In this document: positions 1,449-63,614 of the stretch, piece after piece
Layout: each line of letters begins with the position of its first letter
Position numbering within the stretch: position 1 is the stretch's first letter
Virus record (IMG/VR): IMGVR_UViG_3300020016_000004
Coordinates: 1 to 64,000 of that record
DNA length: 64,000 nt
Source of the DNA: a virus
Taxonomy: Duplodnaviria; Caudoviricetes
Reading direction: 5' to 3' (one strand)
Position numbers and translations under genes: made by a program
Notes under the pieces: generated by a model
The model's database searches: none
Told to the model about the DNA's origin: nothing
Seen by the model: only the letters and a program-made list of their open reading frames with translations

Positions 1449-1619
1449 TTACGGTGTTACTGTTCTGCAAAATCTCTTTGTCCTTACAAGCCTGCGCAAA
1501 TATGCAAACCGATGTGGCTTTCCTCGCAGGTCCCTGATGGTAAAAATATCATTGGCGATCAATCTTCCCTTTTCCGTAAATCCAGAGTGTATTACTTCGT
1601 CTCGAATAATATTTTCCAT
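1449..1619 (-). CDS. Small hypothetical protein (56 aa, MENIIRDEVI...)
   Basis: Translated by hand; fills the gap between 1627 and 1444 exactly. Confidence 0.55.
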   Translation of the reverse strand: MENIIRDEVIHSGFTEKGRLIANDIFTIRDLRGKPHRFAYLRRLVRTKRFCRTVTP

Positions 1620-1626
1620 CGGCGGA

Positions 1627-1842
1627 TTATTTAGAGTTTTGTTTTATGAAATAATCAGATGTTATCATCATCCACCTGCATAATTTACAATAGCTTTCAA
1701 TGTCCGGTGGGCTTCCCGCCTCAATTCTGCTTAACGTGGACGCAGATATTCCAATCTTTTTTGCCGCACTTCTCATGGAGAGCTGTTGATACTTCCTGTG
1801 AGTTGAAACTTTCTCTGTAAATAGTTTTTGGTTAAAAATCAT
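1627..1842 (-). CDS. XRE-family HTH regulator
   Basis: LSMRSAAKKIGISASTLSRIEAG. Confidence 0.9.
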   Translation of the reverse strand: MIFNQKLFTEKVSTHRKYQQLSMRSAAKKIGISASTLSRIEAGSPPDIESYCKLCRWMMITSDYFIKQNSK

Positions 1843-1860
1843 GGTGTTTTATATCGGAAA

Positions 1861-1900
1861 CAAATGTACTATTAAAGAAACACTAAAGTCAAGTGTTATT
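1861..1900 (-). promoter_or_regulatory. Promoter AATAACACTTGAC-N18-GTACATTTG
   Basis: TACATTTG fits Bacteroidota -7 consensus TAnnTTTG; same upstream 13-mer recurs at 11287-11299. Confidence 0.65.
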
Positions 1901-2270
1901 TTTCATCCACCTGATTATCAATCGAATTGTTTTCTGAATGTACATCACCAATGCATATATCGTTGATTCCATCGCACCTCCCACAACATTCACCTTCACG
2001 TGGCGTCGCCTTCTTTATTTCCCAAAACACCCTGAAGAAAAGTTCTTCAAAGGTCATCCCGAGCCCTGCGGCCATTGCCTGTATTTCTTTTATCCGCATC
2101 CGCGCTGGGTCCCTCACCCAGCTTGTTACCGTTGGTCCAGTTACAAGATAGCCCGCATTGACGATGTGCTTATGAAGTTTATTGTTGGTCCATTTCTTAC
2201 GAACCAAAATTTTCTTTAACTTTTTCTTACAGCCAATTATTTCCATATTGATTAGTTTATATTTCCCCAT
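1896..2270 (-). CDS. Probable HTH DNA-binding protein with Cys-rich tail
   Basis: PTVTSWVRDPARMRIKEIQAMAAGLGMTFEELF resembles XRE fold; CCGRC tail. Confidence 0.55.
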   Translation of the reverse strand: MGKYKLINMEIIGCKKKLKKILVRKKWTNNKLHKHIVNAGYLVTGPTVTSWVRDPARMRIKEIQAMAAGLGMTFEELFFRVFWEIKKATPREGECCGRCDGINDICIGDVHSENNSIDNQVDEK

Positions 2271-2929
2271 TGGGCAGCAAAAGCTTTTGCAATTCCAGGA
2301 AAGGTTTTTGATCGGTACTCATTAAAATCTTTTTGCGGCTGCTTTCCGCCGAATCCTTTTCCTTGCGCGTACCACAACGGCTGACTTTTTTCTTTTCCAG
2401 TTTTAGAATCAACCCAAGTATGCTTCGCTCCCGAATCAACATGCGTGTTCTGTTCAAACAAATTATCTCCCTTCGTGTGCAACAACATGGGCAGCCCTGA
2501 CAACCACAAGCAGGTTTGTTTCTGATATTCGTCCCCGAAATAATACGGGTGAATTATTTGTGGCTTTGGCAACCTGGAATCCCCATTCATCGCTCCCATT
2601 GGATTCTCCATGTACACCCTCCTTGCTTTCTTTACAGCAAGCTGCCACAACTTAACCGTCCATTCGACGGCCTATATTCTTTCTTGGTGCCGTGGCTTTC
2701 CTGGAGCATAGTGCCGATTGCCTGATAGCGTCATTTTTGTACACACCGGATGTAGGCCGATGAAATCCCATTGCTTTAACTCAATCGCTTGCATTACATC
2801 CATTTTCAAATGCCACTCCGGATGACCGCCCGAACAATCCTTCAGGTCGTTGCTGTACGCTTCGTGTCCCGTCGCTCGAAAAGCATTGCATACCTCCTGT
2901 GATTCTTCACAACCAATTAATATCAGCAT
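2252..2929 (-). pseudogene. Phage C5 cytosine DNA methyltransferase interrupted by one in-frame TAG (2672-2674)
   Basis: ILIGCEES..VC.AFR..GHEAYSND, HPVCT and ENPMG motifs lie in one frame across ERI*AVEW. Confidence 0.8.
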
Positions 2930-3282
2930 GTTTTCTTTTCGCGTTCGTAATTAAAATCAATCCGTACACCGGGCTCATGCTTTTTCTTCCACACGCTTTT
3001 GTAGTCACTGGCAATTTCAATCTTGAACTTTACCTGCTGGTACATCCCGTAGTCATCATCGATGAACCGCTTAACAGCTTCTATAAATCGGTCCCACTCC
3101 GTTTGAATCAACTTATCCCAGTCCTCGCTGGTTGCTGTCGCCGGATCAAACGAAATCCGGTCGCCCTGCGGCAGCTTCTTCAACACATTGTATGCTTTCT
3201 CCCGATCAAAAATAATGGAGCCACCCATAGGCATCGCTAACAATCGCGCGTACGTCCGGTCGGTGTAGTTGGGTACACTCAT
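2923..3282 (-). CDS. Hypothetical protein
   Basis: ORF track; tight operon packing. Confidence 0.7.
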   Translation of the reverse strand: MSVPNYTDRTYARLLAMPMGGSIIFDREKAYNVLKKLPQGDRISFDPATATSEDWDKLIQTEWDRFIEAVKRFIDDDYGMYQQVKFKIEIASDYKSVWKKKHEPGVRIDFNYEREKKTC

Positions 3283-3938
3283 AGCTCGATAGAATTATTT
3301 ACCTGATTGCCGTACACACTCCAACCTTCATATTCGTGGTCGGCAAACATACCCTCCCTGCTTCGTGCAAATAATTCCAGCTTACGCGGAGTAGCAAAGG
3401 AAACCTGTACCGCCTTGTTGATCAGTTCCCGGAAATGCGCGGGCTTCTGCGAATGCTTGCCTGCTTTGGACTGGTGACATTCATCCAAATCAAAAACCTG
3501 ACTTTCATAAAAGTTTGCTTTCTGTTGACGGAACGCTTTCACCGTTCCTTTCGTGCCCAGTATCAAATGCTCACACTGCCCGCGAAACCAGTAACCCATA
3601 CCCATGCTCATAATTTTTCTCCACGTCAGCATCGTCTTGTATTTGAATCCCCATGCAGTCAAAGTCGCCAATCCTTCCGGCAACAACGGCACGGTAACCC
3701 ACAGGAAGCAAAGCGCGTCCTTCTCGGTTATCTCCCATATCGGCAGGTTCATAATGTCTTCGTTAGTCATCACGTCGTACTTCTGTTCGGCACCATGTTT
3801 ATAATCACGGCCCGTCTTTTTCTGCTCGTATGACCACGGCGGATCGCCGTAGATAACATTATACTTTTCAGAATGGAGGGCTGTCATCGTCGCTGTCATA
3901 ATTAAATTCAAATCTGCTTCCAGGATGTACAGGCTCAC
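3279..3938 (-). CDS. MT-A70-family N6-adenine methyltransferase (likely start 3899 or 3887)
   Basis: YGDPPWSY, LCFLWVT, WGFKYKTMLTWRK, HSQKP, KLELFAR. Confidence 0.92.
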   Translation of the reverse strand: MSLYILEADLNLIMTATMTALHSEKYNVIYGDPPWSYEQKKTGRDYKHGAEQKYDVMTNEDIMNLPIWEITEKDALCFLWVTVPLLPEGLATLTAWGFKYKTMLTWRKIMSMGMGYWFRGQCEHLILGTKGTVKAFRQQKANFYESQVFDLDECHQSKAGKHSQKPAHFRELINKAVQVSFATPRKLELFARSREGMFADHEYEGWSVYGNQVNNSIEL

Positions 3939-5832
3939 TCACAATTCTATTCGGAGTAATTATGCTGATCTGTGGAGTGTAGCTGTCAAGCACTGGGTTG
4001 AATCCATCATCGCTCTCAAACCCGCAGTTTCCCTTTACAATTCGTATTCGTACCGGTGAATCCATCGGGGTTGCTATTCCCCCCGTTTCGGTTTCCTTTA
4101 TTTTTCTCACATGGATTTCTGTCCACATCCAGTCCGTAGCATGCTGCACATACCTATGAACCGTAAAAAAGTCGTCCGCCCGATTAGAAAACTTTCCTCC
4201 TCCTTCGGTATCTGCTTTGCCCGGTGGCATTGGGAAGCCTTCATACTTGTGTCCCTTAGCATGGGTTCTCCTGAGCGCTTCAGTAACGGCGTGACAGTTT
4301 ATATAAACAGAGCAGTTGTGACGCTCCTTGAACAGCCGTAACTCTCCAGTTCCCTTATAATGATATTCGTGGGTGGATAGCTTGCTGAATGGCTCCATAT
4401 CGAGATCCAATGAGTTGTACGGATCAATTAAAAATGCCTGATATTCTTTTTCTTCAAATAGCTGCTCGGCGATTGTAATTAAATTCTTGTAGTTGTAGGC
4501 ATCTTTGTTAGCGATAAGCGCAAAATGCTTTTTCACCCACTGATAACCATTTTCAAGTTCCTCGTTGGTGAGTGCGGTAATTGGTTTGCAATAGTAAAGT
4601 TCAATTATCTTTCGCTTCACATATCCATTCCTGTTCTCCCCAGCATAAATAATCCACGACCATTCGTGTTTTTTCGCCGACAATACTGCAAGGAAAAGCA
4701 TTACAAGCGTTTTGCCAACATTGTCGTGGCCATTAACAATTACAAGATTTCCTTGTTTAAAAAGAAAATGTTCGTCAAGTTTCAGAATACCCGTTGATAG
4801 TCCCATTGGAATTTTGCCATCCCTGGCAAGCCGGAGATATACAAGGTCTTCATCGTCTACCGAAAGATATTTTTCAAGATTCTTGATTATCTTTTTTTCT
4901 TTGGTTTGAACGGGCTCTCGCGCCGCCCCGTATCCCTCCGCACGTAGCCTGCGCGATGCCTCAGAAAAATCTTTATTACATTCCAGCACAGCGTACACCG
5001 CATACGGCAAATGTGCTTTGAGCGAATCAAATTCAGTGGAAGTAGAAAAAACCGTAAACCACTTGTCTGCATGACGATATCCGGCCGAATGGCCCTCATC
5101 CTTCCCTGGTCGACGCAAGAGCGCGTTTTTACCATCGTTCGAGACAATCTTCCACCCATGCTTGACAAGCAGCGCCAGCACGTCCCCACGCTCGTTGTAA
5201 TCTTCCAGTGGGCTTAACTCACCATCTTTCGGTGTAGCATGATGAACAATTTGATCGCCCTTAAAGTTTTGGTTGAATTCTCTTGCCGTGTTGAGTAGGT
5301 GGTCACGTTCTTCGGGCGAAATTTCGGGAATCTGATGCAGGTGCTTTTCAATAAACTTATACCCTGGAGTAGGATATGCCGCGATATACCCGCCAATTCC
5401 CCTTGTTTCAATCAGCACCTTCACCTTTTCTCCGTTCCTGCGCTCCTCCTCTGTCGCTGGTCGCTCCGCAAGTTTCTGATTCCCTTCAATCCGCCGACAA
5501 CGATACAGCAGGTGATACCCACCGTTTACCGTAGCCTGGATGACAAGTTTTTTAAATATTTCCGGATTAACGCGATCTCGGTAGTCTTCAAACAATGTTC
5601 CCGTCAGATCATACTTGCAATCCAAATCCAGTGCTTCAAGATTTCCAGAAACCTCTCCGCATACAATTCCGATTGCTGGCGCTTCGGGATTAAAGTTTTT
5701 TTCAACCTGCGCCTCCGACATAAATTTCCCCTGAAATGGCTTCCATGAACCAATAGGCACCTTGTTGGCTCCGAGTTTAATTACGGAAACCCCCAAGCCA
5801 ATGTACTTTTTAACAGTTTCTATCTGGCTCAT
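3868..5832 (-). CDS. Primase-helicase: N-terminal prim-pol domain + DnaB-like SF4 helicase
   Basis: IGIVCG..SGNLEALDLD, T.NGGYHLLYR; Walker A GHDNVGKT, LIDPYNSL. Confidence 0.88.
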   Translation of the reverse strand: MSQIETVKKYIGLGVSVIKLGANKVPIGSWKPFQGKFMSEAQVEKNFNPEAPAIGIVCGEVSGNLEALDLDCKYDLTGTLFEDYRDRVNPEIFKKLVIQATVNGGYHLLYRCRRIEGNQKLAERPATEEERRNGEKVKVLIETRGIGGYIAAYPTPGYKFIEKHLHQIPEISPEERDHLLNTAREFNQNFKGDQIVHHATPKDGELSPLEDYNERGDVLALLVKHGWKIVSNDGKNALLRRPGKDEGHSAGYRHADKWFTVFSTSTEFDSLKAHLPYAVYAVLECNKDFSEASRRLRAEGYGAAREPVQTKEKKIIKNLEKYLSVDDEDLVYLRLARDGKIPMGLSTGILKLDEHFLFKQGNLVIVNGHDNVGKTLVMLFLAVLSAKKHEWSWIIYAGENRNGYVKRKIIELYYCKPITALTNEELENGYQWVKKHFALIANKDAYNYKNLITIAEQLFEEKEYQAFLIDPYNSLDLDMEPFSKLSTHEYHYKGTGELRLFKERHNCSVYINCHAVTEALRRTHAKGHKYEGFPMPPGKADTEGGGKFSNRADDFFTVHRYVQHATDWMWTEIHVRKIKETETGGIATPMDSPVRIRIVKGNCGFESDDGFNPVLDSYTPQISIITPNRIVSEPVHPGSRFEFNYDSDDDSPPF

Positions 5833-6608
5833 TTTTCGTTGGGGTGTTTGCCTCCTGGATATTTTTTATAAAAATCGGCATCCTTCATGTGCCGATAATC
5901 GTGCTGAAATTCTTTGTCTACATCCGACCACGGTTTGGTTAAAACAATTTCTTCGCTGACCGTATAACCAGATACAATTTCAATTTCATTTTCAGCATTT
6001 AGGTTAACCTTTTGGTTTCTATCTTGCTTAACCGTTTGGTTAACCAAATTAGGGTTGCCTCCGCGCATTCCTGCGATTTTTCGCGTTTTTGACAGTTCCT
6101 CCATTTTTTTGATTTTCCGGCTTTCAATCTTCATCTGCCCGTTATCGAGTTGAGTGAAATCAATTACATTTTTTTGGTTAAGTGTTTGGATAACCAAAAC
6201 AGAGTCTTCCATCGAACAAGACATTAACCTGGAGAAATCCTCATAGGAACCAATAATCTCCCCCCTTATGCTTGCATCCCACATATAAAGAATAAGATCA
6301 ACGTATCCGCCACGCACATTTAACGGGAGAACCCGGGTGTCCTTTAAATAATCACCAACATAAAAGGGAATGTATGGTTGTTTGCCCATGTGAAAATAAT
6401 GGTGTCCGCGTTCAAACAACATCCGGCTGAAACCATTATCGGGAGAAAATGGAACGGTTGTCGTCCTACTAACGGACACTATTTTGAAATAAGATTGTTT
6501 GTTTTCATTGGAATCTGTTTTCAGCTTTTGATTCGGGTGTAATAATAGAAACCATATTGAAACAAAAATATGTTGTGTGAAGTTATTTATCAACAGGTGT
6601 TTGTTCAT
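5829..6608 (-). CDS. YdaU/DUF1376-like replication initiator; homologous domain begins at Met 6389
   Basis: PYIPFYVGDYLKDTRVL....RGGYVDLILYMW; 73-codon in-frame extension to ATG 6608. Confidence 0.78.
   Translation of the reverse strand: MNKHLLINNFTQHIFVSIWFLLLHPNQKLKTDSNENKQSYFKIVSVSRTTTVPFSPDNGFSRMLFERGHHYFHMGKQPYIPFYVGDYLKDTRVLPLNVRGGYVDLILYMWDASIRGEIIGSYEDFSRLMSCSMEDSVLVIQTLNQKNVIDFTQLDNGQMKIESRKIKKMEELSKTRKIAGMRGGNPNLVNQTVKQDRNQKVNLNAENEIEIVSGYTVSEEIVLTKPWSDVDKEFQHDYRHMKDADFYKKYPGGKHPNEK
6390..6570 (-). promoter_or_regulatory. Putative interleaved two-stem leader (third, weaker copy)
   Basis: GCTGAAAAC(6525-6517)/GTTTCAGC(6433-6426) interleaved with GTGTCCG(6479-6473)/CGGACAC(6408-6402). 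Confidence 0.5.
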
Positions 6609-6847
6609 CGGCGGATCGCAAAGATTCTTTTCAACCCGCCGATGAACAACTCTTTTAACTTCTCATCTTTCTGTCCCTGCAGGAGTATTTTCCCTGTCCT
6701 GTACATATTTATTACAGCACCGCTTGTTGTCTTAATCTGGTAGCCGTAGTCAATAGTTCTCTCGGCGGAAATTCCATAATCGTTGTCAGCGAGTAGCATC
6801 TGTACTTTTTCAACAAGAGGGTTGGGTATGTTAGATTGATCGCTCAT
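6605..6847 (-). CDS. Stand-alone TBP-like domain protein
   Basis: YGYQIKTTSGAVINMYRTGKILLQG resembles N-termini of RNase HIII-like and TIR-like nucleotide-binding proteins. Confidence 0.55.
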   Translation of the reverse strand: MSDQSNIPNPLVEKVQMLLADNDYGISAERTIDYGYQIKTTSGAVINMYRTGKILLQGQKDEKLKELFIGGLKRIFAIRR

Positions 6848-6875
6848 TTTTTGTCGGCGGATTGAGAGGAGTCTT

Positions 6876-7160
6876 TTAAACTATTTGTTTGTAGTTTTTC
6901 TTGTTATGTATGACTTCCATCCCGCGCTTTTTTATTGTTATGTGTGCATGATTTGCATAGAAACCGTCTGGTGGATCAAATTTATATTCGGATGGATAAA
7001 GAGGAATTACCTTCAGCAAACCTTCTTCAAAGTCTATGGCGAGAACAATGCAGTCCATTTCAAATCTGTACGCCTCTGCAAGTTTGCCGGAATAGTCATT
7101 TGAAAATACAACAAGTTCAAACGGTTTCCATCTTCGCTTTTTAAATTCATCCTCGGTCAC
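6876..7160 (-). CDS. Hypothetical protein
   Basis: ORF track; ATGA coupling to upstream exonuclease. Confidence 0.7.
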   Translation of the reverse strand: MTEDEFKKRRWKPFELVVFSNDYSGKLAEAYRFEMDCIVLAIDFEEGLLKVIPLYPSEYKFDPPDGFYANHAHITIKKRGMEVIHNKKNYKQIV

Positions 7161-8101
7161 TTTACCGTTTCCTTTCCATCCGCCGACAATAATTTTGATT
7201 CTGATTTTTCTTTCTCGGCGGACGCAAGAGAATCTTGCGCCACAAATCTGGGTTTCAAATAGGTTCCGGCAGCAATCATTAGCTCTGTAAGTTTGTTCTT
7301 TTCTTCCTGTGGCACATCAAAACGAATTATCGTTATGTCCTGATAATAACCGCCCCGGTGAATCCAGGGAAGCGAGTCGTCTTCCGCCCAAAAGAATCTC
7401 GCTACTCCATCTTTCTTTTCGTGGTCATCGGATGTCACTTTTAATTTTGTCAAATCATCCTTGTACGGAACGCTTACGATTAACTCAAACACATCTACAT
7501 CAAGAAGAACGGCGTTGGAAATCATTTGTATAAAATATTTCTCTCCATCCTTGTGTGCTTTGCGTTTCAATCCTGTCATTGGATCAATCCAATCTTTGCG
7601 AATAGCGTTGATTGCGTCCATTCCACGAAGTCCACGATAGAACGGATCAACAAGCCTTGTGAATGAAGATAAGGTAGAGGGCGATTTCATTTCAAACCCT
7701 ATTCTTTTTTCTTCACCAAATTTTTCCCCCTCTGGCGAACCGCTCCACCAGTCTATTGTTGGGTGCACCATTACTTCAGCAGAACTTAGCCGATACGAAT
7801 TTGGCAGCTTCTGAAAAAAAAATGGCTCACATAATTTTCCATACATTAAGGGACGAGCATCCGATTCGTTGGTTATCGCCCGACCCAAGATCCTTTCTAC
7901 ATTGGTTTCGTTAATGTACGTGATGCAAGCGTCGCCCGGCCACGATTCAATGGTTCTTGCTTTGCTTTTCGGATTTGTGATTTTGTATGCAGCCAATTCA
8001 TCTTCTGCCATATCCCTCTTTCCTGTCGAGTAGAGGGCTACCGCTTCGCTCGACGTGAAATTGCCAAAGCGCAGGGGATTCATGTTTACTGTTGTTTCCA
8101 T
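7157..8101 (-). CDS. YqaJ/lambda-exonuclease-like recombination nuclease
   Basis: FTSSEAVAL, YGKLCEP, GSPEG, FEMKSP, QMISN; next to annealing protein. Confidence 0.78.
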   Translation of the reverse strand: METTVNMNPLRFGNFTSSEAVALYSTGKRDMAEDELAAYKITNPKSKARTIESWPGDACITYINETNVERILGRAITNESDARPLMYGKLCEPFFFQKLPNSYRLSSAEVMVHPTIDWWSGSPEGEKFGEEKRIGFEMKSPSTLSSFTRLVDPFYRGLRGMDAINAIRKDWIDPMTGLKRKAHKDGEKYFIQMISNAVLLDVDVFELIVSVPYKDDLTKLKVTSDDHEKKDGVARFFWAEDDSLPWIHRGGYYQDITIIRFDVPQEEKNKLTELMIAAGTYLKPRFVAQDSLASAEKEKSESKLLSADGKETVK

Positions 8102-8103
8102 TT

Positions 8104-8754
8104 TTATAGGTTGGTTAGTGTTTCGTGAATTTTCTTGTATGATGTTTTTTCTTTTCCATTAATTATGCGCAAATAGTTTTCCCTGTCCTCGGGGTGTATT
8201 TTGTCCAACTTATTCTCAAAAAGTCGCCGAAGACTAACATCATCCACCACATTTGATTTCAGAAGAGCATTGTAGTCCATCGTTTCCGCTCGGTTCAGGT
8301 CCTTGCCGAAGATCCGACCCCATTGCTCACAGGCATCCTTGATCGCATACGTCTTCGCTGCCGGTGCTGCTAACTGCGCTCCTGCCGGATCTTTGCCTAC
8401 GATATAAGCACCGACACCATCCTGGTATTCCTCTTTGTCTGTTACCGGATTCCTGACCGTTACACGCACCGTTATCACGATAGACTGCGCAAGCTCCTGT
8501 ACCGACCTTACCTCTGTCTGATAGCCCCCGTAGATGTATGCAAGGAGCCACTCAATCCGCTCGATAGGAAGGTACACCAGCGGAATCCATTCGCCCGATC
8601 TGTTCTGCACCTTGGCTGTGGGATGCTCTTTCAGCCATTCTTTTTTCGGCGGCTGGTTGAGAATCACCATCAGATTGTTCTCTGATTCAGAGAGGGGCTT
8701 CTCGTCAATGATGTCACTCAGTTTTGGTATGATATGCTTTGTTTCGTTTTTCAT
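8104..8754 (-). CDS. Rad52/Sak-like single-strand annealing protein
   Basis: YLPIERIEWLL, V.VRVTV, AKTYAIKDACEQWGRIFGKDLNR. Confidence 0.75.
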   Translation of the reverse strand: MKNETKHIIPKLSDIIDEKPLSESENNLMVILNQPPKKEWLKEHPTAKVQNRSGEWIPLVYLPIERIEWLLAYIYGGYQTEVRSVQELAQSIVITVRVTVRNPVTDKEEYQDGVGAYIVGKDPAGAQLAAPAAKTYAIKDACEQWGRIFGKDLNRAETMDYNALLKSNVVDDVSLRRLFENKLDKIHPEDRENYLRIINGKEKTSYKKIHETLTNL

Positions 8755-9027: not shown

Positions 9028-9084
9028 GTTTTTTTTTGTTTTAAGATTCTTGTTTTTCCGCCGACAATAATGAATTTTAAAAAA

Positions 9085-9141: not shown

Positions 9142-9158
9142 CCGTTGTTCATGTTAAA

Positions 9159-10022
9159 TTAAAACGGGAGATCGTCTGCCGGATCAGCGTCTTCAGCAGT
9201 TGTTCTGATAACTTTTTTCTCGGCGGACTTAACTCCTCCGGTGTTCGGGGTAATCTTTCCGGGCGTGTGTGCTTCGGTTTCTATTACTTCCGCCGATGGC
9301 TCAACCTTCTCCTCGCCACCTTTCATCTTAAATTCTTTCCACTTCATGTATTCGTCAATCACGCTTTCAGCTTTCCAGTTATTAAAATCTTCTTCGCTGA
9401 TAAAATCGCCAACGGTAATGGCTGCGTACTTCGGTGGATTTTTCTGACGAAATTTTCCCAAATATTCTTTTGCTTTTTTACTGATGGTAGTGTCGGCTTC
9501 AAAGAATGTTTGAGGATTAAGGAGAACATACTTCTCCTGCAATTCTTCTTTGTGAGCGGTGATCTGATCAATGGCGATGGAAAGGTTTGTGGTCACTGCC
9601 ACAAGCCCATCTTCTGTCAGGACAAAAAGAACTTGGCGCTTCTTTAAAATACTTGTGCTGTTTTTGGTGATGTATTCTTCAATGACCGGCATGGCTCCTT
9701 TGGCGACGATAGCATATCCTTTCGGTGATGGCGCAAACAAAGCAATGGATTCATCATTTCTGAAATAGTAGGAAGAGGTATAGTTTCCTCCTTTACTGCC
9801 GAGATTATCAGAATAACTCGATGCCTCCATTGCCTGACCGATCAGGATTCCTTTTATCGGCGGATCAATTAGAGTGTCCTCCTTTTTTTCATTGTCCCAT
9901 GTGACGAATGTTGCTTTTCCGGTAGCATCTTCTTTCAGCTTAATTCTTGCTGCGATTTCTAATTTCGGTACTGCGTTTCCAGCACCTTGACTTTTTGAAA
10001 GCCTGTCCTTGATTGATGTCAT
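9159..10022 (-). CDS. Probable single-stranded DNA-binding protein
   Basis: Acidic C-terminus ADDLPF; adjacent to exonuclease/SSAP pair. Confidence 0.55.
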   Translation of the reverse strand: MTSIKDRLSKSQGAGNAVPKLEIAARIKLKEDATGKATFVTWDNEKKEDTLIDPPIKGILIGQAMEASSYSDNLGSKGGNYTSSYYFRNDESIALFAPSPKGYAIVAKGAMPVIEEYITKNSTSILKKRQVLFVLTEDGLVAVTTNLSIAIDQITAHKEELQEKYVLLNPQTFFEADTTISKKAKEYLGKFRQKNPPKYAAITVGDFISEEDFNNWKAESVIDEYMKWKEFKMKGGEEKVEPSAEVIETEAHTPGKITPNTGGVKSAEKKVIRTTAEDADPADDLPF

Positions 10023-10250: not shown

Positions 10251-10270
10251 TGTCGGCGGATGGACAGTAA

Positions 10271-12057: not shown

Positions 12058-12263
12058 GTTGCAAAATGGAGAACCCCGCCTTTTTAGGGACGGGGTTGTA
12101 TAGAACACTGAGTTACAAGTGGCACGTTATACGGTGTTGCAGACCGCTATCTTAATTTCTTTGTAAAGATAACTACTTTTTCTATACTTCCTTCTCCGCC
12201 ACAAATAAACTTCAAAATTCCTTTCGATCCGCCGACAATAAAAATTATTTATCAACAGGTTTT

Positions 12264-14165: not shown

Positions 14166-14492
14166 CTATGGTTTTAGCATTGTAAAGAAGGTTGCAAGTT
14201 TGGCTAAGATGGCCTTTCCCGATATTCCAGCGGCGACACCAACACCGGTTGCTATTGAGGTGCCGACCACCTTTTGCCTGAAGTTATCATTGGAGAGTTT
14301 GTCTATTTTTTTAGAATACACATCAATTTCTTTTTCCAAGTCGTTGATTTTGTCTTCATGAATTTTTATTTTTCCAATAATGCCAGGGTTGCCGTATTGC
14401 GGATTGCCTATAATATGTTCTTCAAGTCGTTCAAATTCATTCTTGATGATCCTGAATGATTGCACAAGGCTTTGTTCGGCGGACTGGCTCAT
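14166..14492 (-). CDS. Coiled-coil protein with C-terminal TM segment (holin/lysis accessory-like)
   Basis: GNPQYGNPGIIG, heptad region, hydrophobic C-terminus. Confidence 0.6.
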   Translation of the reverse strand: MSQSAEQSLVQSFRIIKNEFERLEEHIIGNPQYGNPGIIGKIKIHEDKINDLEKEIDVYSKKIDKLSNDNFRQKVVGTSIATGVGVAAGISGKAILAKLATFFTMLKP

Positions 14493-16432: not shown

Positions 16433-16879
16433 TTACTTTTTTCCCCTTCCCTTTGTACCAGACGTAGTGGTGGTTGTGGTTGTTCCGCCTTGCGTAACAG
16501 TTAATTGAGAAAAGGGCATATCTGCATACGGATCACCCAGGTTCACGCTTCCGCCGACAACCTCAATATTCTGTAACTCGTAATTGAACTTATTGCTTAA
16601 CACTACCGGGTAGTCTGTTGAGAGTTTCAGGCACATGATTCCGTGTGTTCCCAATATTACCGACAAGGGAACGATCATCATTCCGTTATCAATTGGGAGC
16701 ATTGTACTTTTTTGAGTAAAGCGATTATAAACAATATCCCATGCCCAAATTTGGGCCGAGGTTTTTCCTTCCAATCCAATGAAGAAAATTTGATGTCCGG
16801 TAAGCACTGGCGGATAATCAGGGTACCGTGGATCTATTCCTGAGAATAGGGGTTCTGTTTTTGAGATTGTTACATTCAT
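16433..16879 (-). CDS. Hypothetical beta-rich protein with poly-Thr tail
   Basis: ORF track. Confidence 0.65.
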   Translation of the reverse strand: MNVTISKTEPLFSGIDPRYPDYPPVLTGHQIFFIGLEGKTSAQIWAWDIVYNRFTQKSTMLPIDNGMMIVPLSVILGTHGIMCLKLSTDYPVVLSNKFNYELQNIEVVGGSVNLGDPYADMPFSQLTVTQGGTTTTTTTSGTKGRGKK

Positions 16880-24698: not shown

Positions 24699-25299
24699 AT
24701 CCGCAACCTGTACGATTGCAGATATCTGTTAGTTGTTCGATTAAATCTTTTGCCCTTTGTATTTTCGGCGGATCGCAGAGAAACGAATTCTTTATTGCCT
24801 CCAATGTGTTCCACGCTTTTGTAAAATCAGATCCTCCGCATTTACATTCATCGGTACACTTGCATAATTTGTAGGTGGCGGCCATCTTGTTCACGCAGCA
24901 TTCAAGTGTACATAAGATTGGAAGTTCAATGGTTACTGTTTCTGAGTATTCCCCGATTCCGCCCGAATCATCTCCTGTTACTGTATAAATAGCGGTGATC
25001 ACCTGTGATGGAATTTTTTCCTCGGAGGCATAACCTAAAACGGTATTCAGTACTTGGTATGCAAGCTGAGTGTCATCGGTAGGAAAGGTATCGAACAAAT
25101 CAATTTGTGGAATAACAGTTCCGTTCTGCAGGGTAATATCAAGCGTTGCCGTGAGTGCGGTGTCTATGTCGGGTCTTGGCGAATTCCAGCCGCCGGGATT
25201 GGAAGCAGAATAAGCACCCGTGAGTTCGAGCCAGTTAATGCTCTTGCAGTTGCTTGGCCAGGTAATGTCACCTTTTAATACTACTCCTGAATTTGTCAT
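24691..25299 (-). CDS. Cys-rich structural protein
   Basis: ECCV..CKC.DECKC, ends ICNRTGCGCV. Confidence 0.7.
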   Translation of the reverse strand: MTNSGVVLKGDITWPSNCKSINWLELTGAYSASNPGGWNSPRPDIDTALTATLDITLQNGTVIPQIDLFDTFPTDDTQLAYQVLNTVLGYASEEKIPSQVITAIYTVTGDDSGGIGEYSETVTIELPILCTLECCVNKMAATYKLCKCTDECKCGGSDFTKAWNTLEAIKNSFLCDPPKIQRAKDLIEQLTDICNRTGCGCV

Positions 25300-48506: not shown

Positions 48507-48562
48507 GTTATTTGCAAATGAACGAAAATAATATCAAATCCGCCGAAGAAGATAATAATTTT

Positions 48563-51345: not shown

Positions 51346-51707
51346 TCTTTTAATCCTCCAATTGGTTTGTCGTCAAATGAATTTTTGTCGGCGGATTGAG
51401 AAGAAACATTAAATGAATTGTAATCATTAGTTTTTTTATCAATCGCATCAGAAAGAATCGCATTAATCAATCGTTTCCATATTTCGTTTTTGTCAAATTT
51501 ACCCCACCAAGATTCACGATACACCACAACACCATTAAATGTGGCTGAAATTTCTCCCTCCTTCTCGCTGACGACCACAGAATATTTACTGTGATTCATG
51601 AAAAGCTGATCAAAGATTTTTCTGTAATCTATTGCTTCTTCAGGCATGACAGTTATCCCATAGGTTTTTAATTCGTGAATCATTTCTTTAGCAGTGCGCT
51701 CCACCAT
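51339..51707 (-). CDS. Hypothetical protein
   Basis: ORF track. Confidence 0.6.
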   Translation of the reverse strand: MVERTAKEMIHELKTYGITVMPEEAIDYRKIFDQLFMNHSKYSVVVSEKEGEISATFNGVVVYRESWWGKFDKNEIWKRLINAILSDAIDKKTNDYNSFNVSSQSADKNSFDDKPIGGLKEW

Positions 51708-52684
51708 TTTTTTCTGTTCTCGTTTAAAACTTTTAAATCGTAATCATTCTTCACGCAAAGATATGCGTTCTCGGCGGATGCAGGAGATTTCAGTGCAAGG
51801 TCAATGGTATTTATCCAATGTTTGATTCGCTCTTTGTGAACCAAATAATTTCCTCCGTGTGATTTTTCGTTGAAGCGAATGAAGGGCGAAACCATTGAAC
51901 AAACAGTGGGTACTTCCCATACGGAAGACTCAAGTACCTTGATTTCAGATTTTGAATTATTAAATTTATTATCGGGCAACGGGCAGAGAAACACATCGCA
52001 TGCTGCCGGGAATTCAAGTGCTATGTTCCTATCCTGCCAGCCGATGCAAACGATGTTCTTCTGACCAGTGAGCCCGAGAATATTTAAGAAGTCAATATTG
52101 GAGGCGATAGCGAAAGTTATATTTCCTCTCTGCAAAAGTTCTTTCATCGCCGGACGAATGAGCGCCAAAGAATCTACATGGGATGGTGTGCCCTGCCAGC
52201 CAATAATTTTATTTCCTTCCGGAATCTTATGCTCCCGCCGAAACTCATCCCTTATCCTTTCCTTTTCATCGAGTCTGTAATTATCGAAGTTGATACTATT
52301 TAAAAATACTTCTGTCTTGGTAGGATATGGAAGTGCTTTTTTTAACTGAGGAGTTGAAACATGAATGTAGTCGGCGAGTCGAAGACATTCTTTGAAAACA
52401 GGAAGTCCGTTCTTTTGTTTCAATTCTTCATAGACGGGGTTGGAGAAAGGGAGATTGAAAAGGTCGTCGTCCGTGTCAACTACGAGTACTCCGCCATCAC
52501 TCTGAAATTGCTGAATGAATGGAATGAGCGTTTTGTCAATAGGCTGATGAAGTACAATAGCATCGTATTTTTCATCCTGATTCATTTCGGGCGAAATGAA
52601 AAGAAACTCTATACCGTCAATCTTCAAATTTGAATACGGCTCGAATGTGCGATACGAATTACCCGATGTTATTAATACTTTCAT
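51680..52684 (-). CDS. GT-B (GT4-like) glycosyltransferase
   Basis: VDTDDDLF, IIGWQGTPSH, PL.DNKFNNSKSEIKVLE. Confidence 0.85.
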   Translation of the reverse strand: MKVLITSGNSYRTFEPYSNLKIDGIEFLFISPEMNQDEKYDAIVLHQPIDKTLIPFIQQFQSDGGVLVVDTDDDLFNLPFSNPVYEELKQKNGLPVFKECLRLADYIHVSTPQLKKALPYPTKTEVFLNSINFDNYRLDEKERIRDEFRREHKIPEGNKIIGWQGTPSHVDSLALIRPAMKELLQRGNITFAIASNIDFLNILGLTGQKNIVCIGWQDRNIALEFPAACDVFLCPLPDNKFNNSKSEIKVLESSVWEVPTVCSMVSPFIRFNEKSHGGNYLVHKERIKHWINTIDLALKSPASAENAYLCVKNDYDLKVLNENRKKWWSALLKK

Positions 52685-53181
52685 GTTACTTTTAACTCAG
52701 GATGCTGTTCAATAAATTGTTCCCATCCACCGATAGGAAGGAATGGAACTTTTGCTGTGCGGAAGAATGTAGGTATGCCATGTGCTATATCAGCGTTTTC
52801 CATACGTGATATAATTTCAGAACAAAATTCTTTGTCGGCGGCAAAATTAGAATCCATGATTCCTGCTATTTCAAATTCCTCTCCGATCCGCCGAAGAAAC
52901 CAATTCACCGTGTTCACATAGCTTACCTCTGCTTTTGTTTCTATAAGTATAATCTGCTTTCCTAAATCTTTGTTTTTTTTGAAAGTATTTATGTAATGTG
53001 CTACTCTTGAACAGTTGTCGAATACGAAGATCGCTCCACAGTCAGATGCAAGCAGTGCTTCAAAGGAGGCGTGAAAAATTTCCATTGGCTTACTGTCAAT
53101 GGGGGCTGTGGATGAAAATCTATTCTCATCTTTGGGTATCGCCGAAAGGAAAAGAATCGGTATGGAGCGGACTACGTTCAT
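52681..53181 (-). CDS. Possible short/degenerate GT-A-like protein
   Basis: VFDNCS, AGIMDSNF; inside sugar cluster. Confidence 0.4.
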   Translation of the reverse strand: MNVVRSIPILFLSAIPKDENRFSSTAPIDSKPMEIFHASFEALLASDCGAIFVFDNCSRVAHYINTFKKNKDLGKQIILIETKAEVSYVNTVNWFLRRIGEEFEIAGIMDSNFAADKEFCSEIISRMENADIAHGIPTFFRTAKVPFLPIGGWEQFIEQHPELKVT

Positions 53182-53447: not shown

Positions 53448-54300
53448 GTTTAATATTTGTTTTCGGCGACCAGCCGAGAATCTTTTCAGCCTTTGAAATA
53501 TCTAAACACCTCCTGTTAATACCATCAATACTTCTCTTTGGAATCATCTGTATGGAATGGGGCCTGTCGAGTGCCGAACAAATCATTTTAGAAAGATCAA
53601 TAATTGAGGTCTCTATTCCTGTTGCAATGTTGTACTCATCATTCATTGCCGGTAGTTCAATGCACCTCATCACAGCATCCACTACATCTTCAACGTAGGT
53701 GAAGTCTCTTGTCTGCTTACCGTCACCTATTATTTTTATAGATTCTCCTTTGATCGCCGAATGAATCATCTTCCCAACAACACCACAATATTCTGATGAC
53801 GGTCGCTGATTAATCCCCGTGACATTGCTTAAACGAATCGTTGTATAATTTCCACGCTCTTGCAGATACATCTCAGAAATTCTTTTCGACGTATCATAAG
53901 AGTTGACACAATGGATTTTTGCGTGTTCGGGAGTTGGTATTTCTTCGGCGGAATTGTAAACTGAAGCCGTCGAAGTAAAAATTATTTTTCCGCGAAACTT
54001 CTGAAATAAATTTATTGCATGTAAGGCATTGTTAGAAAAAGTTTCTGTCTCATGGGTTTGAGCGTAAATGATGTTTGAAACAGCGCAATGTACAAGTACA
54101 TCAAAGTCGTTCAAAAATCTTGCACCAGCTTCATTGAAATCCTTGTCCATCCACGCCAAACCTTCTGGAATATTCTCTCTGCTTCCAAAAGATAAATTAT
54201 CTATTCCATAGACATCTATGCCAAGATCAATCAGTCGTGCGCAAATTCTACTCCCTACGAAACCCACACAACCAGTTACAAGGCACTTTGTTTTATACAT
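53407..54300 (-). CDS. NAD-dependent nucleotide-sugar epimerase/dehydratase
   Basis: TGCVGFVGS, YDTSK (YxxxK), GDGKQTRDFTYVEDVV. Confidence 0.93.
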   Translation of the reverse strand: MYKTKCLVTGCVGFVGSRICARLIDLGIDVYGIDNLSFGSRENIPEGLAWMDKDFNEAGARFLNDFDVLVHCAVSNIIYAQTHETETFSNNALHAINLFQKFRGKIIFTSTASVYNSAEEIPTPEHAKIHCVNSYDTSKRISEMYLQERGNYTTIRLSNVTGINQRPSSEYCGVVGKMIHSAIKGESIKIIGDGKQTRDFTYVEDVVDAVMRCIELPAMNDEYNIATGIETSIIDLSKMICSALDRPHSIQMIPKRSIDGINRRCLDISKAEKILGWSPKTNIKLGILKTIEWQKTI

Positions 54301-55123: not shown

Positions 55124-55890
55124 ATCGAACGTTTCATTTGTAAATATTCATCAAAATAAATCTGCGGCTTTCCTTCCATTGAAAAAATAATGTAGTCTTT
55201 ATATGCCCGGTAAACTTTTCCGATGTTGGTATGCTCCACTTTTATATCGGGAATAATAGCCCAATCGTACCCATGATCTTTGAAATCCTGAATCATCATT
55301 TCTATGTGACCGTATATTGTTGCTGTCGGCGGATATGGAAGTTCCCTGTTAATTTTATTCAGGAACGCTCCATTGAAAGCAATCTGAGCCCAATTTACAA
55401 CACCCTTCATGCGCCAAACGACAATATCATTGAATAATTCTTTAGTATAAAAATCTTCCTTTATTGTTTCGATGACACCTACCTGGGCCAATGATGCAAG
55501 AGCAAAATTAGAATTGCGACAAACTCTCGTCATCGCATTCACCCATCCATTATCCAAAACCACTTCATCCGGATCGCAACCGATAATTACATCGGAGTCG
55601 TCTGGCTGAATTATATCTATTGCCCGCGACCAATTTTGCTGAACGCCAACGTTATCTATTTTCAAATAGTGAGATCCATAAAGCCAACAGAGTTTTTTTA
55701 ATTTCTCGGTATTATTTTTTTTCGCCGACTCAATATCCTCCGGAATAACATCTCCTTCTTCCAACGGAAAGCCTAAATCGAAAACGTAGTGAGTGAAATC
55801 AACTTTGTTTTGTGCATACAGCCTTTCTACCGCACCAGTTACCTGATCAGGGGTATTGAAGGCAAGGGTGACGCAACTTACAGAATTCAT
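55120..55890 (-). CDS. GT-A (GT2-like) glycosyltransferase
   Basis: IGCDPDEV DxD motif, NVGVQQNW. Confidence 0.72.
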   Translation of the reverse strand: MNSVSCVTLAFNTPDQVTGAVERLYAQNKVDFTHYVFDLGFPLEEGDVIPEDIESAKKNNTEKLKKLCWLYGSHYLKIDNVGVQQNWSRAIDIIQPDDSDVIIGCDPDEVVLDNGWVNAMTRVCRNSNFALASLAQVGVIETIKEDFYTKELFNDIVVWRMKGVVNWAQIAFNGAFLNKINRELPYPPTATIYGHIEMMIQDFKDHGYDWAIIPDIKVEHTNIGKVYRAYKDYIIFSMEGKPQIYFDEYLQMKRSI

Positions 55891-57390: not shown

Positions 57391-58478
57391 CAGAATAGTG
57401 CTATTTCATTTTGAAAATACTTTCTCTCGTAAATCTTCATTCCGCTTGACCTTTCTATTTTTTCGGGCGCATTGAGGTCGATGATAAACTGCTTTATGCT
57501 TGTTACCATGTTTTCGTCAAAACCGCTTACATTTTCGCCGAAGATAACAACATACTCACCATTACATTGAAACCTGATTTCATAATACGGATTGTCAATG
57601 TCCCTGGTCGTTGTCTCCCATATCCTGATTTTCGTATTGTCGCCGAGCATGACAATGTTGAAGTCTTTATCTTTCTGCGATTGTAATAGCATCAACTGTT
57701 CTTCGTCGCTTACAAGAAATGTTGCGAACGGGCGAAGGAAAACTCCGTGATCAGAAGGCCATACGATCTTGTGCTCTTTTACCCATGAGGAACCGCATCT
57801 ATGCTGAATAAAATAATCTATTGGAAACGGAGCGACGGTTAGTTTTTTCTCGGCGGCATCTCGCATATTCTGACCAAAAGGGGCTCCGTTATCATTCGCT
57901 GCTCCGAGTTCTTTGTACATCCATGAGCGGTACATGGAGGCTGATGGATGGGCGTACCGGAGAACATCGTTTTCGTCTTTCGGCGTCCCTACTCCATAGT
58001 TGGAGTGGCTTACAAGCATGAGAGAACCGGTTGCATATAAATTATCATCGGCGGAAAATTGCTCTACCATTTTTTCTATGAATCCACCGAAGCGAACAAT
58101 AACATCAGAATCAAACGTCATTACAAGCGGCGTGTCCACAAGGTTCCTGATGGCAAAGTCCAATATCTCTCCGTGAGAGTTCCTTCCCACGTAATTATAT
58201 ACTGTTAGGTTCTCGGTAGTTAGTTCTTTGTATTTTAAATACAGCGTTGATTGATCTTCGCTGTCACCATCCATCACCAATATTTTAATGTACGGATAAA
58301 ACCGCAGGAGGCTTTCGATAGCAATTTGCGTAAACTCCTTTGTCTGCCGCTGACAGATGATACAGGTGACAGGAAACTGCTTCCATATTGCTTCGTGAAA
58401 ACTTTCATCGAAGTCTGGGTGTGCAAGCTGAATGGCACCCTCCAGATTGCACATTGCAAAATATTGTTCATCTGTCAT
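57390..58478 (-). CDS. GT2-family glycosyltransferase
   Basis: LVMDGDS, HGEILD, MTFDSDV. Confidence 0.82.
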   Translation of the reverse strand: MTDEQYFAMCNLEGAIQLAHPDFDESFHEAIWKQFPVTCIICQRQTKEFTQIAIESLLRFYPYIKILVMDGDSEDQSTLYLKYKELTTENLTVYNYVGRNSHGEILDFAIRNLVDTPLVMTFDSDVIVRFGGFIEKMVEQFSADDNLYATGSLMLVSHSNYGVGTPKDENDVLRYAHPSASMYRSWMYKELGAANDNGAPFGQNMRDAAEKKLTVAPFPIDYFIQHRCGSSWVKEHKIVWPSDHGVFLRPFATFLVSDEEQLMLLQSQKDKDFNIVMLGDNTKIRIWETTTRDIDNPYYEIRFQCNGEYVVIFGENVSGFDENMVTSIKQFIIDLNAPEKIERSSGMKIYERKYFQNEIALF

Positions 58479-60913: not shown

Positions 60914-61009
60914 AAGTTTTTCGTAACACAACTATGGCGTAGCCAGATACATAATATGGTCGGGCTTTTTTATTCGGCGGACGTAAAGGATTCTTTTCAA
61001 TCTGACGAC

Positions 61010-61659: not shown

Positions 61660-61792
61660 CCTAATCAACACGAATCACAATAACACCAGGGCAAGATACT
61701 ATCCAATTCCCCCAAATCCGCCGAGAACAAAACCAACTTATCAACATGCATGGCACAAATATTTATTTCTACATTTGTACAAACAAAAAATC

Positions 61793-62029
61793 ATGCAAGC
61801 AAACCTCTTCATCAACGAGAACAATTACCTGCTCAACTACTCCCTCTCGCCCGAGAACAATATCATCGTTGAATCCATCTTGGATGAAACCGGTGCCGAT
61901 CAAAAATCCAGACTGCCTTACCAACAAGCCCTCGCCCTGCTGCAAACCGAGATTCATAATAATCCGCCGACAACAAAAGACACCCACACCAATATCTTTT
62001 TGTACCCCCTCCACAGGAGAGCCATTTGA
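61793..62029 (+). CDS. Hypothetical protein
   Basis: TACATTTG at 61770-61777 then ATG 61793. Confidence 0.5.
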   Translation: MQANLFINENNYLLNYSLSPENNIIVESILDETGADQKSRLPYQQALALLQTEIHNNPPTTKDTHTNIFLYPLHRRAI

Positions 62030-62382
62030 AAAAAAAATTTTTTGGAAAATTGGTTTTTTTGGGCATGCATTTTAAAAGTATCTGCGTTTTTTGGACAGTT
62101 TCGCGTACGGGCCGGTCACCCCCACCGTGTTGCCGTCGAAATTTTCAAAAAAAACCCCTCCCCCACTGCTTTTTCAGCTCCGGATTTTTCAAACTCCTGC
62201 ATTCTGCTCTGATCCGCTCCGCTTTCCTTAAAACATCGAATGAGCTAAACCAGGTTAGGATAAACCATTCCTTGCGGGCCGCTGGCAATGGCGAAGGGCG
62301 CGAAGGCGAAGGCGATGGAAGCAAATGTTGTTTAACATAAAACTATTTAACATATTATTTTAGAACAAAAGAAAAGCCGGGT

Positions 62383-62784
62383 TTATTGAACGTGCTTACC
62401 AAGCCACTTATAAGCATCAGTTATAAAATGTTCATCGTTATCTAAATAGTTTGGTATTGAGGGCTGTACAATATTAACAATTTGCTTTTTGTGCTGTTCT
62501 ATTGTCATCGCTTCACAGGCTTTTGCGTTCTCCTTTATATTGAATTGAGCCAAAATGATTAGTTGAGGATAATCACTCATTTGCCACATAGTTTTTATTA
62601 TCCAATCACTTTTTGGCGTCATCTTGTAAAGAGTATTTGCAAGGTGCTTCCTGTATTCAAGCTTGGCAAAGTCGATGTGCTGTTTCAATCTTGCTCCTGG
62701 ATAACAAGTCATTCCTATATATTTTATTACAAGTGCATCAGGACAAAGCAAGCCATAAACCACATACTTTCTTTCGTGTTTCAT
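62383..62784 (-). CDS. GIY-YIG nuclease
   Basis: YVVYGLL...KYIGMT..PGARLKQH, EAMTI. Confidence 0.8.
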   Translation of the reverse strand: MKHERKYVVYGLLCPDALVIKYIGMTCYPGARLKQHIDFAKLEYRKHLANTLYKMTPKSDWIIKTMWQMSDYPQLIILAQFNIKENAKACEAMTIEQHKKQIVNIVQPSIPNYLDNDEHFITDAYKWLGKHVQ

Positions 62785-63005
62785 ATTGAATAATTTAGTT
62801 TTAATCCGATTGAATCCAAATATATTTTTAGGCTCTTAACGCTTACCGAATCATTGCCGGTTTCTATCTTCTTTACCGTCCTTGCGTTCAATCCGGTTTG
62901 CTTCACGCTTATTTTCGCTGATTTTCTTAGCTCCTTTAGGTTCATTGCACAATAATACATAAAAACTCCGTAAATATTGTACTGCAATACTCGTTTTATA
63001 AACAA
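62781..63005 (-). CDS. Small XRE-like HTH protein (likely start 62945)
   Basis: LKELRKSAKISV..GLNARTVKKIETG..SVSVKSLKIYLDSIG; ATGA overlap with GIY-YIG. Confidence 0.75.
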   Translation of the reverse strand: MFIKRVLQYNIYGVFMYYCAMNLKELRKSAKISVKQTGLNARTVKKIETGNDSVSVKSLKIYLDSIGLKLNYSI

Positions 63006-63087
63006 TTTATTAACAAATTATTATTGAAACAGATACAAGTTGAGCCAGATTTCATACTTTTGATGCGAATAAACGCCAATTATCCAC

Positions 63088-63432
63088 ATGTCTGCTGGTT
63101 CCCACTTCACAAAAAAGGTATTTCAAGCATGTGACAGAGAAAGCGACTATCTTAAAGGGGTTTTTTCAGCCAATAGATACACTATACGGACAGTTATAGG
63201 AGAGTTTAACCGTGTGTTGGATAGTCGGGGGATTTCAGAGAATCAGGCGATAAAAGAGCTTAGGGCGCTCGGCGGGATAATAACCAGGAACACGCTTAAC
63301 AAGATGAGGAAGGGAGAATATTACACGGCTTCAACCACTTTTTTAAATATCCTTTCACGTTATGCGGGTTATAAAGATTTTATTGATCTGGCATATCATG
63401 TGAGAAGCCGTGAGCTTGGTTTGCCTACGTAA
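63088..63432 (+). CDS. Probable HTH repressor-like protein, divergent from 62945
   Basis: GISENQAIKEL...ITRNTLNKMRKG; TACTTTTG at 63055-63062. Confidence 0.55.
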   Translation: MSAGSHFTKKVFQACDRESDYLKGVFSANRYTIRTVIGEFNRVLDSRGISENQAIKELRALGGIITRNTLNKMRKGEYYTASTTFLNILSRYAGYKDFIDLAYHVRSRELGLPT

Positions 63433-63614
63433 ATATCATTTGTCTTGGGATGATTTTTATCGGCGGATGCAAGAGAACTTTTGTATTTATTTACAACTTT
63501 TGTCTGTGTTTTTCAGTTAGTTAACTCTTTTTTAATTTTCAAGCTATTTAATCAAAAAACGCAGAAAAGTATGTACTTTTATTTGAATTCAATTTAAAAA
63601 CGAATGTTGATTGA

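Follow-up and report, generated by a model that had tools for sequence, protein, structure and literature searches.

An asymmetric octamer under DNA-level selection in a soil phage genome, with a primase-helicase as its candidate reader

Why would a phage genome carry dozens of copies of one octamer, scattered over both strands, within genes and between them? The question was raised by IMG/VR virus record IMGVR_UViG_3300020016_000004 and the word TCGGCGGA. The window analyzed here is the first 64 kb of this 77,810-bp record; the whole phage genome is referred to as G000, and its part beyond the window was covered by L013 (L013:3361-8101 equals G000 66361-71101). The sample of origin was a soil metagenome, and the record has 41% GC and a CheckV completeness estimate of 100%. 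A sequence-only reading of the window had listed 33 sites against an expectation of about one, in both orientations, in several coding frames and in intergenic DNA, and had suggested a selected cis-signal.

An exact count revealed 40 sites in the window, with TCGGCGGA on the plus strand at 25 of them and on the minus strand at 15. The word TCCGCCGA is TCGGCGGA read on the opposite strand, and all counts pool the two. Every one of the 33 coordinates listed earlier was correct, and seven further sites had been missed (Table 1). The expectation of about one site also held, as 100 dinucleotide-preserving shuffles of the window gave a mean of 1.02 sites and a maximum of 4. The whole of G000 contained 46 sites (29 and 17 by strand) where about one was expected, an excess of about 45-fold, and TCGGCGGA/TCCGCCGA was its most frequent 8-mer. 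As claimed, the sites occurred in both orientations, in all three frames and between genes: 34 of the 46 (74%) were located inside genes, 21 in sense and 13 in antisense orientation, and the remaining 12 lay in the non-coding DNA that makes up 10% of the genome. The two shorter or longer words that the sequence-only reading had called very frequent were so too, with 115 copies of the core TCGGCG (CGCCGA) against 17 expected in G000 and 37 copies of CGCCCGA against 3.5. Variants with one letter changed or one inserted were enriched 5- to 25-fold, and TCGGCG was the part that stayed constant. The excess of TCAGCCGA was of a different nature, arising mostly from a 24-bp tandem array at the contig ends.

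The word is a cis-signal under selection at the DNA level, and this selection prevails over codon usage and even over the protein sequence. Its excess on both strands and throughout genes indicated that the DNA itself is selected. When the genes were shuffled among synonymous codons, 1.8 sense and 1.5 antisense copies were obtained (3.3 in all, maximum 6), compared with the 34 observed, so that the excess persisted in the codon-preserving check; shuffling the codon order gave 0.65 and 0.89 copies (1.5 in all). These shuffles ruled out a by-product of codon or dipeptide usage. The same pressure was visible in Ser-Ala-Asp/Glu tripeptides, 16 of 22 of which were spelled with the word (12 with TCCGCCGA, 4 with TCGGCGGA), while codon usage would give about 3% for each spelling. 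At the orthologous codons, relatives had other bases and often other residues, as at the FRRIK, VPPT and SAE of G000 (the relatives' residues are given in Table 1). Since these alignments showed substitutions instead of insertions, a small in-frame mobile element was ruled out. An assembly or sequencing artefact was likewise ruled out by the Logan assembly of the same runs, which was identical over 544-20000, by reading frames (ORFs) that remain open, and by a phage contig of another sample that is filled with the same word. The longest core-free stretch, 66361-71101 (4.7 kb, 35.6% GC), had 0 core sites against 9.4 expected (P ~1e-4). It encodes an IS1-like DDE transposase, an HNH-AP2 nuclease of the homing kind, a P63C-domain protein and an M78-like protein. 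Recently acquired DNA is thus without the word.

The contig from the other sample, L118, was found through its homologue (66% identity) of a primase-polymerase (Prim-Pol) fused to a helicase that G000 encodes. CCGCCGA occurred 64 times in its 29.9 kb, about every 470 bp, with copies also in the tail-side genes. The copies were divided 30/34 between the strands although all genes point one way, and their orientation nearly alternated, with 48 switches out of 63 compared with 31.9 +/- 4.0 expected. Pairs closer than 300 bp were scarce on the same strand (6 against 20 expected) but not on opposite strands (32 against 20). G000 showed the same strand trends in weaker form. The spacing on each strand was about 0.9 kb in L118, and in G000 it ranged from 1 kb for the core to 2.7-4.6 kb for the exact word. 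The spacing in G000 was only weakly even (coefficient of variation 0.79 overall, P=0.07; 0.60 on the minority strand, P=0.02), and its wider core family was not evenly spaced. The spacing and strand analysis proposed by the sequence-only reading therefore returned weak evenness in G000 and a depletion of same-strand close pairs that was clear in L118. The alternation in L118 and the restriction of the close-pair depletion to the same strand suggest that each strand needs coverage of its own and that the reader moves along a single strand, as a primase-helicase, an exonuclease or a helicase-nuclease would.

The consensus of the word with its surroundings was 5'-(T-rich x6)-TCGGCG-G-A-W-3', in which the T-rich tract occupied positions -6 to -1, on the 5' side of TCGGCG in the same strand and regardless of the direction of transcription. 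The significance of the tract in the two transcription classes was P=1e-20 and 1e-13 in G000, and 2e-12 and 3e-9 in L118. Around one-third of the G000 sites had a GAWTC 7-8 bp off the other end of the word. The strict form of this partner accompanied 6 of the 34 genic sites, with 0.5 expected, and a relaxed form accompanied 8 of the 12 intergenic sites. No GAWTC partner was present at the word in L118. A few sites formed palindromic composites, TCGGCGGA-N7-GATTC-N8-CCGCC(C)GA, as at 6608 and 29213. The word itself is asymmetric, and of its palindromic versions TCCGCGGA occurred once and TCGGCCGA never in G000, so that a palindrome of the HIP1 or parS type, as the sequence-only reading had also considered, fitted poorly. 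At least nine G000 sites lay 0-6 nt ahead of start codons, while the whole core family showed no association with starts (23% against 19%).

About 14 of the 46 sites were within 80 nt of a start on the same strand. This small share and the missing start association of the core family led us to reject a phage RNA polymerase or sigma-factor promoter, or a ribosome-binding signal, as a general account, and a subset of the sites may still have an ordinary role of this kind. A hairpin or an N4-type structured promoter was rejected as well, since the folding energies of the flanks equaled those of random genome segments.

The partner motif and the sites before start codons would be accounted for if the word bound a phage-encoded protein on duplex DNA, whether a global regulator in the manner of repressor operators or stoperators, or a protein that marks or condenses the genome; the sites before starts would then be regulatory. 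The palindromic composites, the over-use of intergenic DNA and the several small helix-turn-helix-like proteins encoded by G000 speak for this account. A Pfam search of G000 gave no match to an IHF/HU-like protein. A known parallel is found in the L5-type stoperators of cluster A mycobacteriophages, where dozens of copies of an asymmetric word are likewise spread across a phage genome. Stoperators are read by a phage protein that binds them in two parts as a monomer, and some of them are at promoters (PMC9283540). They are located in short intergenic spaces and oriented with transcription (PMC9283540), whereas the majority of the G000 copies are genic, sense and antisense, and their orientation is independent of transcription. 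The nearly equal strand division of L118 in spite of its co-directional genes, the absence of the GAWTC partner there, and the lack of a start-codon association in the core family all argue against a duplex binder. Nor would such a protein predict that close pairs are avoided on the same strand only, and for this reason a plain duplex-bound protein mark or a packaging mark, among the options of the sequence-only reading, was disfavored. We consider this account unlikely.

Opposite-strand copies of the word lay only 13-70 bp apart at several places, which bears on another account, that the word marks sites at which a phage nuclease or transferase nicks one strand or modifies a base. The nick motifs of T5-like and tf-like phages are asymmetric, like the word, and G000 encodes many HNH and GIY-YIG nucleases, an MT-A70 methyltransferase and a glycosyltransferase cluster. 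However, nicks at opposite-strand copies so close together would risk double-strand breaks, the methyltransferases of G000 and L118 belong to different families, and it is not evident why selection should have raised the number of such sites a hundredfold. This account thus seemed very improbable.

The genes that G000 and L118 have in common narrow the choice of a reader. These were only the Prim-Pol-helicase, a YqaJ/lambda-Exo-like exonuclease, a Rad52-like annealase and two small ORFs. The first of these has an N-terminal Prim-Pol domain (Pfam PF09250, residues 9-169, E=1.1e-10; PHROG 'DNA polymerase/primase', 1.4e-70), and its C-terminal half matched the folds of the DnaB, G40P and T7 gp4 helicases with a probability of 1.0. 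We propose, with a probability of roughly 0.35, that the word provides start or loading sites, recognized on the template, for this Prim-Pol/DnaB-type primase-helicase of the phage. The helicase would move 5'->3' along single-stranded template DNA, and the primase part would recognize TCGGCG(GA). A purine-rich primer would then be started on the T-tract just 5' of TCGGCG, in the way that NrS-1 Prim-Pol primes next to an 8-nt site of its own. With either strand able to serve as the lagging-strand template, both would have to hold a grid of sites at about the spacing of Okazaki fragments. The densest cluster of the word, five exact copies in 615 bp (6608-7222), lies beside the replication genes.

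The closest precedents for such a system are the NrS-1 phage Prim-Pol and T7 gp4. The G000 enzyme is likewise a phage Prim-Pol, by type an archaeo-eukaryotic primase (AEP), and it is fused to a superfamily 4 (SF4) helicase as in T7 gp4. NrS-1 Prim-Pol has an 8-nt recognition sequence, 5'-TTTGGTTA-3' (GTG(G/A) is also used), and the primer begins at the first bases 5' of it (PMC8718748). The word in G000 is similarly asymmetric with a length of 6-8 nt, it is read on one strand, and it has T-rich bases at the place where NrS-1 starts its primer (PMC8718748), and both G000 strands carry it at about Okazaki-fragment spacing. The two differ in that the G000 word is GC-rich and unrelated to TTTGGTTA, and in that most homologues of the G000 enzyme are without such a word. 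To our knowledge, a selected genome-wide excess of so long a word has not been described for NrS-1 or T7.

The occurrence of the word tended to follow the replication module. It was strong in L118 and weak in L120 (Prim-Pol-helicase 67% identical; 13 copies of the CGCCGA core against about 2-3 expected). Six relatives found through their terminases (44-78%; L009, L011, L012 and L115-L117) had no such word; their best 8-mers fell within the null, with L012 borderline. In the latter, a Logan contig with a terminase 53% identical, GCTACCGA occurred 7 times in 22 kb (log10P -7.7 against a null minimum of -5.1), and this sequence, which also ends in CCGA, may represent a weak word peculiar to L012. 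Searches for close relatives by terminase in IMG/VR and by Prim-Pol in the JGI metagenomes returned none. We regard the word as particular to a small lineage of phages, or else to the host of that lineage.

Several observations weigh against the primase-helicase as reader. The Prim-Pol of L119 is 59-62% identical to that of G000, and L119 had no excess of the word. The same was true of 76 loci (1.16 Mb) around Prim-Pol homologues of 31-48% identity, which had no comparable word. In view of both results, a long recognition word is not general to the enzyme family and is at most a lineage-specific acquisition. The link between word and module is built on two strong cases and a weak one, all found by a Prim-Pol search, with the other routes sampled unevenly. 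G000, L118 and L120 also had a common restriction-avoidance profile (GATC kept, CCGG high), in contrast to the relatives without the word, which avoid GATC, CCGG or GGCC; a shared host is therefore a live explanation and could account for the distribution of the word equally well. Within the protein, no helix-bundle reading domain was identified, residues 208-300 being mixed alpha/beta in the full-length model; a separate model of the N-terminal 345 residues (predicted local distance difference test score 49) was too poor to search with. Finally, the primase model accounts neither for the GAWTC partner nor for the position of some sites just ahead of starts.

The exonuclease and the annealase offer a different one-strand reader. 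They adjoin each other (7157-8754, minus strand) as a Red-type recombination pair that Pfam did not recognize. The word might act as a pause or hotspot signal for this exonuclease, limiting resection and loading the annealase, in effect a private Chi of the phage. Lambda exonuclease pauses at a specific sequence containing GGCGA, and a reader of this kind would track one strand, in line with the strand pattern of L118. Both genes were present in G000, L118 and L120, and they were not seen in the part of L119 examined. On the other side, the exonuclease of L142 is 46% identical, about as close as that of L118, and L142 had no word at all, which means that the exonuclease alone does not predict the word. 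Sequence-dependent regulation is not established for the exonuclease family, and the support here is correlation only. This possibility appeared decidedly improbable.

A signal of the host was examined next to those of the phage, for which the identity of the host had to be considered. The terminase relatives of G000 encode ring and muzzle proteins of the crAss type, and its closest cultured relatives, with a terminase identity of only 27%, infect Flavobacterium and Cellulophaga. TAnnTTTG, which we take to be the Bacteroidota -7 promoter box, was seen upstream of several genes (regions at window 13330-13572, 22399-22890, 24691-25299, 55903-56646, 59135-59272, 63088 and 63683), and these boxes are the host-type promoters expected in Bacteroidota. 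On the basis of the boxes and the hosts of the cultured relatives, the host of G000 is likely a member of the Bacteroidota. The transposase of the island had a 90%-identical copy in a metagenome-assembled genome (MAG) labelled Flavobacteriales. The candidate hosts comprised 146 genomes of the order of this MAG and 401 drawn evenly from its phylum, 547 Bacteroidota genomes in all.

No specific excess of the word was found in these 547 genomes, which are a small sample, and the enrichment in candidate hosts envisaged by the sequence-only reading did not materialize. The highest density was one copy per 5.4 kb. The most enriched genome examined, G515, had 84 copies (54:30 by strand) against a Markov expectation of 82.5, and the word was one of its many CGGCG-rich words. 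The extended form of the word was at chance level in five genomes. A host-wide word in the order of the transposase-bearing MAG was thus not found. The octamer was absent from about 30 genomes, and this was not a signal specific to the word, as it was explained by avoidance of CGNCG. In one Bacteroidota order, the genome blocks G003, G035, G062-G065, G078-G088, G097-G099, G128-G130 and G139-G146 were nearly free of CGNCG; in G065 (loci L094-L104), CGACG occurred 0 times against 217 expected and CGCCG once against 160, and CTAG was at 0.03 of expectation. This purge is an extreme avoidance of a 5-bp site and is not related to the phage word.

Uptake sequences, the DUS of Neisseriaceae and the USS of Pasteurellaceae, resemble the word in their very large excess, in their occurrence in both orientations and all frames, in the enrichment of their one-off variants and in their AT-rich flanks. 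They differ in that they are located on the chromosomes of competent bacteria and spread there by uptake bias and recombination, whereas the word fills a lytic-type phage. Saturation of the uptake type, about one copy per kb, did not occur in the 547 sampled genomes, where the highest density was explained by composition in the genome examined. Thus, of the comparisons made in the sequence-only reading, the uptake- or Chi-like behavior of a selected signal stood, and a host-wide word of the uptake type was disfavored.

The main rival to the primase-helicase is a Chi-like signal for a host helicase-nuclease of the AddAB or RecBCD type. By amassing the recognition word of its host in both orientations, the phage would protect the ends of its DNA, linear or rolling-circle, and direct them into recombination. 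Chi is also short, asymmetric, G-rich and spread through genes, it acts by orientation, and its imperfect copies may be partly active, which would suit the enriched one-letter variants. The known AddAB Chi sites AGCGG and GAAGCGG include GCGG. Phages can gain from acquiring such sites; it was in lambda, through a gain-of-site mutation, that Chi was discovered. The coverage of both strands, with close pairs avoided only on the same strand, suggested a function that depends on orientation and coverage, and the common restriction-avoidance profile suggested that G000, L118 and L120 have similar hosts. However, Chi is defined by an enzyme of the host, whose chromosome holds it in excess and with a skew, and the survey of the 547 sampled genomes above showed no specific excess of the word, with the extended form at chance level in the five genomes. 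The density in G000 and L118, one copy per 0.5-1.7 kb, is several times that of Chi in Escherichia coli. A 5' T-tract is not a known feature of Chi. In addition, the phage has an exonuclease and an annealase of its own, and the transposase island, likely bacterial in origin, is without copies. A Chi-like host signal is, on this evidence, rather unlikely.

Further features of the genome are given here together with the positions of the sites (Table 1). Among the genes of the window are those for a portal and a large terminase, besides three giant ORFs and a group of small early genes. Both ends of the contig (window 1-627 and G000 77736-77810, that is L013:14736-14810) consist of a 24-bp tandem array (unit TCAGCCGACACCCTGAAMAATTTA), through which the record is probably joined to itself. 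Every array unit includes a one-mismatch copy of TCGGCGGA, and in the Logan assembly the array was collapsed to short pieces with a depth 4-7x that of unique sequence. At window 59272, a TAnnTTTG box is followed by tCGCCG-ATG, which suggested a leaderless transcript. CTAG had 0 sites in G000 against about 280 expected, and ACGCGT, AGATCT and several other 6-bp palindromes were also missing, which looks like strong restriction avoidance; relatives of G000 shun other sets of sites (GATC, CCGG, GGCC). A hexamer tandem repeat, (GCGTAT/GCGGAT)n, at G000 ~74290-74335 (L013 ~11290-11335) inside the ORF 73993-74805 yielded about 20 copies each of CGCATACG and CGCATCCG. Immediately ahead of its tail-side genes, the L118 phage (L141:1-1513) has a gene for a protein of 3,513 residues that contains SNF2/ResIII-like helicase domains.

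Table 1. Exact TCGGCGGA sites counted on the window sequence, with genes of the candidate reader and its neighbors. Strand is that bearing TCGGCGGA for sites and the coding strand for genes; "new" marks sites absent from the earlier list.
Feature	Position	Strand	Remark
Site	1619..1626	+	intergenic
Site	2345..2352	-	new
Prim-Pol (AEP) fused to DnaB/T7-gp4-type SF4 helicase, candidate reader	3868..5832	-	PHROG, Pfam and fold match
Site	5490..5497	-	inside primase-helicase gene
Weak DUF1376-like ORF, possible initiator	5829..6389	-	upstream of primase-helicase; below Pfam cut-off
Composite TCGGCGGA-N7-GATTC-N8-CCGCCGA	6608..6642		two inverted words flank central GAWTC; at stop of ORF 6605-6847
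Site	6762..6769	+	
Site	6854..6861	+	6 nt ahead of ATG of ORF 6605-6847
YqaJ/lambda-Exo-like exonuclease	7157..8101	-	common to L118, L120
Site	7179..7186	-	
Site	7215..7222	+	
Rad52-like single-strand annealing protein	8104..8754	-	common to L118, L120
Site	9057..9064	-	intergenic
Site	9220..9227	+	
Site	9289..9296	-	
Site	9857..9864	+	new
Site	10253..10260	+	2 nt ahead of ATG
Site	12228..12235	-	intergenic
Site	14476..14483	+	
Site	16550..16557	-	
Site	21059..21066	-	in 1597-aa ORF
Site	24765..24772	+	
Site	27005..27012	-	in 1698-aa ORF
Composite TCGGCGGA-N7-GATTC-N8-CCGCCCGA	29213..29248		in 1698-aa ORF
Site	30518..30525	+	
Site	31217..31224	+	
Site	32174..32181	-	new
Site	33402..33409	+	
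Site	35004..35011	+	new
Site	35462..35469	+	paired with inverted variant copy at 35487
Site	38876..38883	+	new; relative FDRIK, here FRRIK
Site	41303..41310	-	new
Site	46898..46905	+	portal gene; relatives IPAT/LPTV, here VPPT
Site	48539..48546	-	between portal and terminase genes
Site	51388..51395	+	
Site	51771..51778	+	relative CSE, here SAE
Site	52887..52894	-	new
Site	53945..53952	+	
Site	55326..55333	+	
Site	58048..58055	+	
Site	60974..60981	+	intergenic
Site	61717..61724	-	intergenic
Site	61963..61970	-	intergenic
Site	63460..63467	+	intergenic

A literature search on the raw word returned primers only, and in a limited search no publication came up that describes such a word in phages of the Bacteroidota, crAss-like or other. 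If the word were instead a Chi-like signal of the host, it would be the first handle on that signal in a soil lineage of the Bacteroidota and would allow hosts to be predicted from sequence only. The priming function of the primase-helicase can be extended into a fuller scenario, which we offer more tentatively. The enzyme would have evolved a template specificity of 7-8 nt, and the genome would have been rewritten, down to its protein sequences, into a private priming grid on two strands. This would give efficient priming to phage DNA and deny it to host DNA, and the grid would travel with the replication module between otherwise unrelated phages. If the phage enzyme does need so long a word and the genome was remodelled to provide it, selection on DNA words would measurably shape the evolution of phage proteins, given that residues at the sites differ from those of relatives. 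A function could then be assigned to such words in uncultured phages, and the word could be used to follow replication modules, or hosts, through mosaic genomes.

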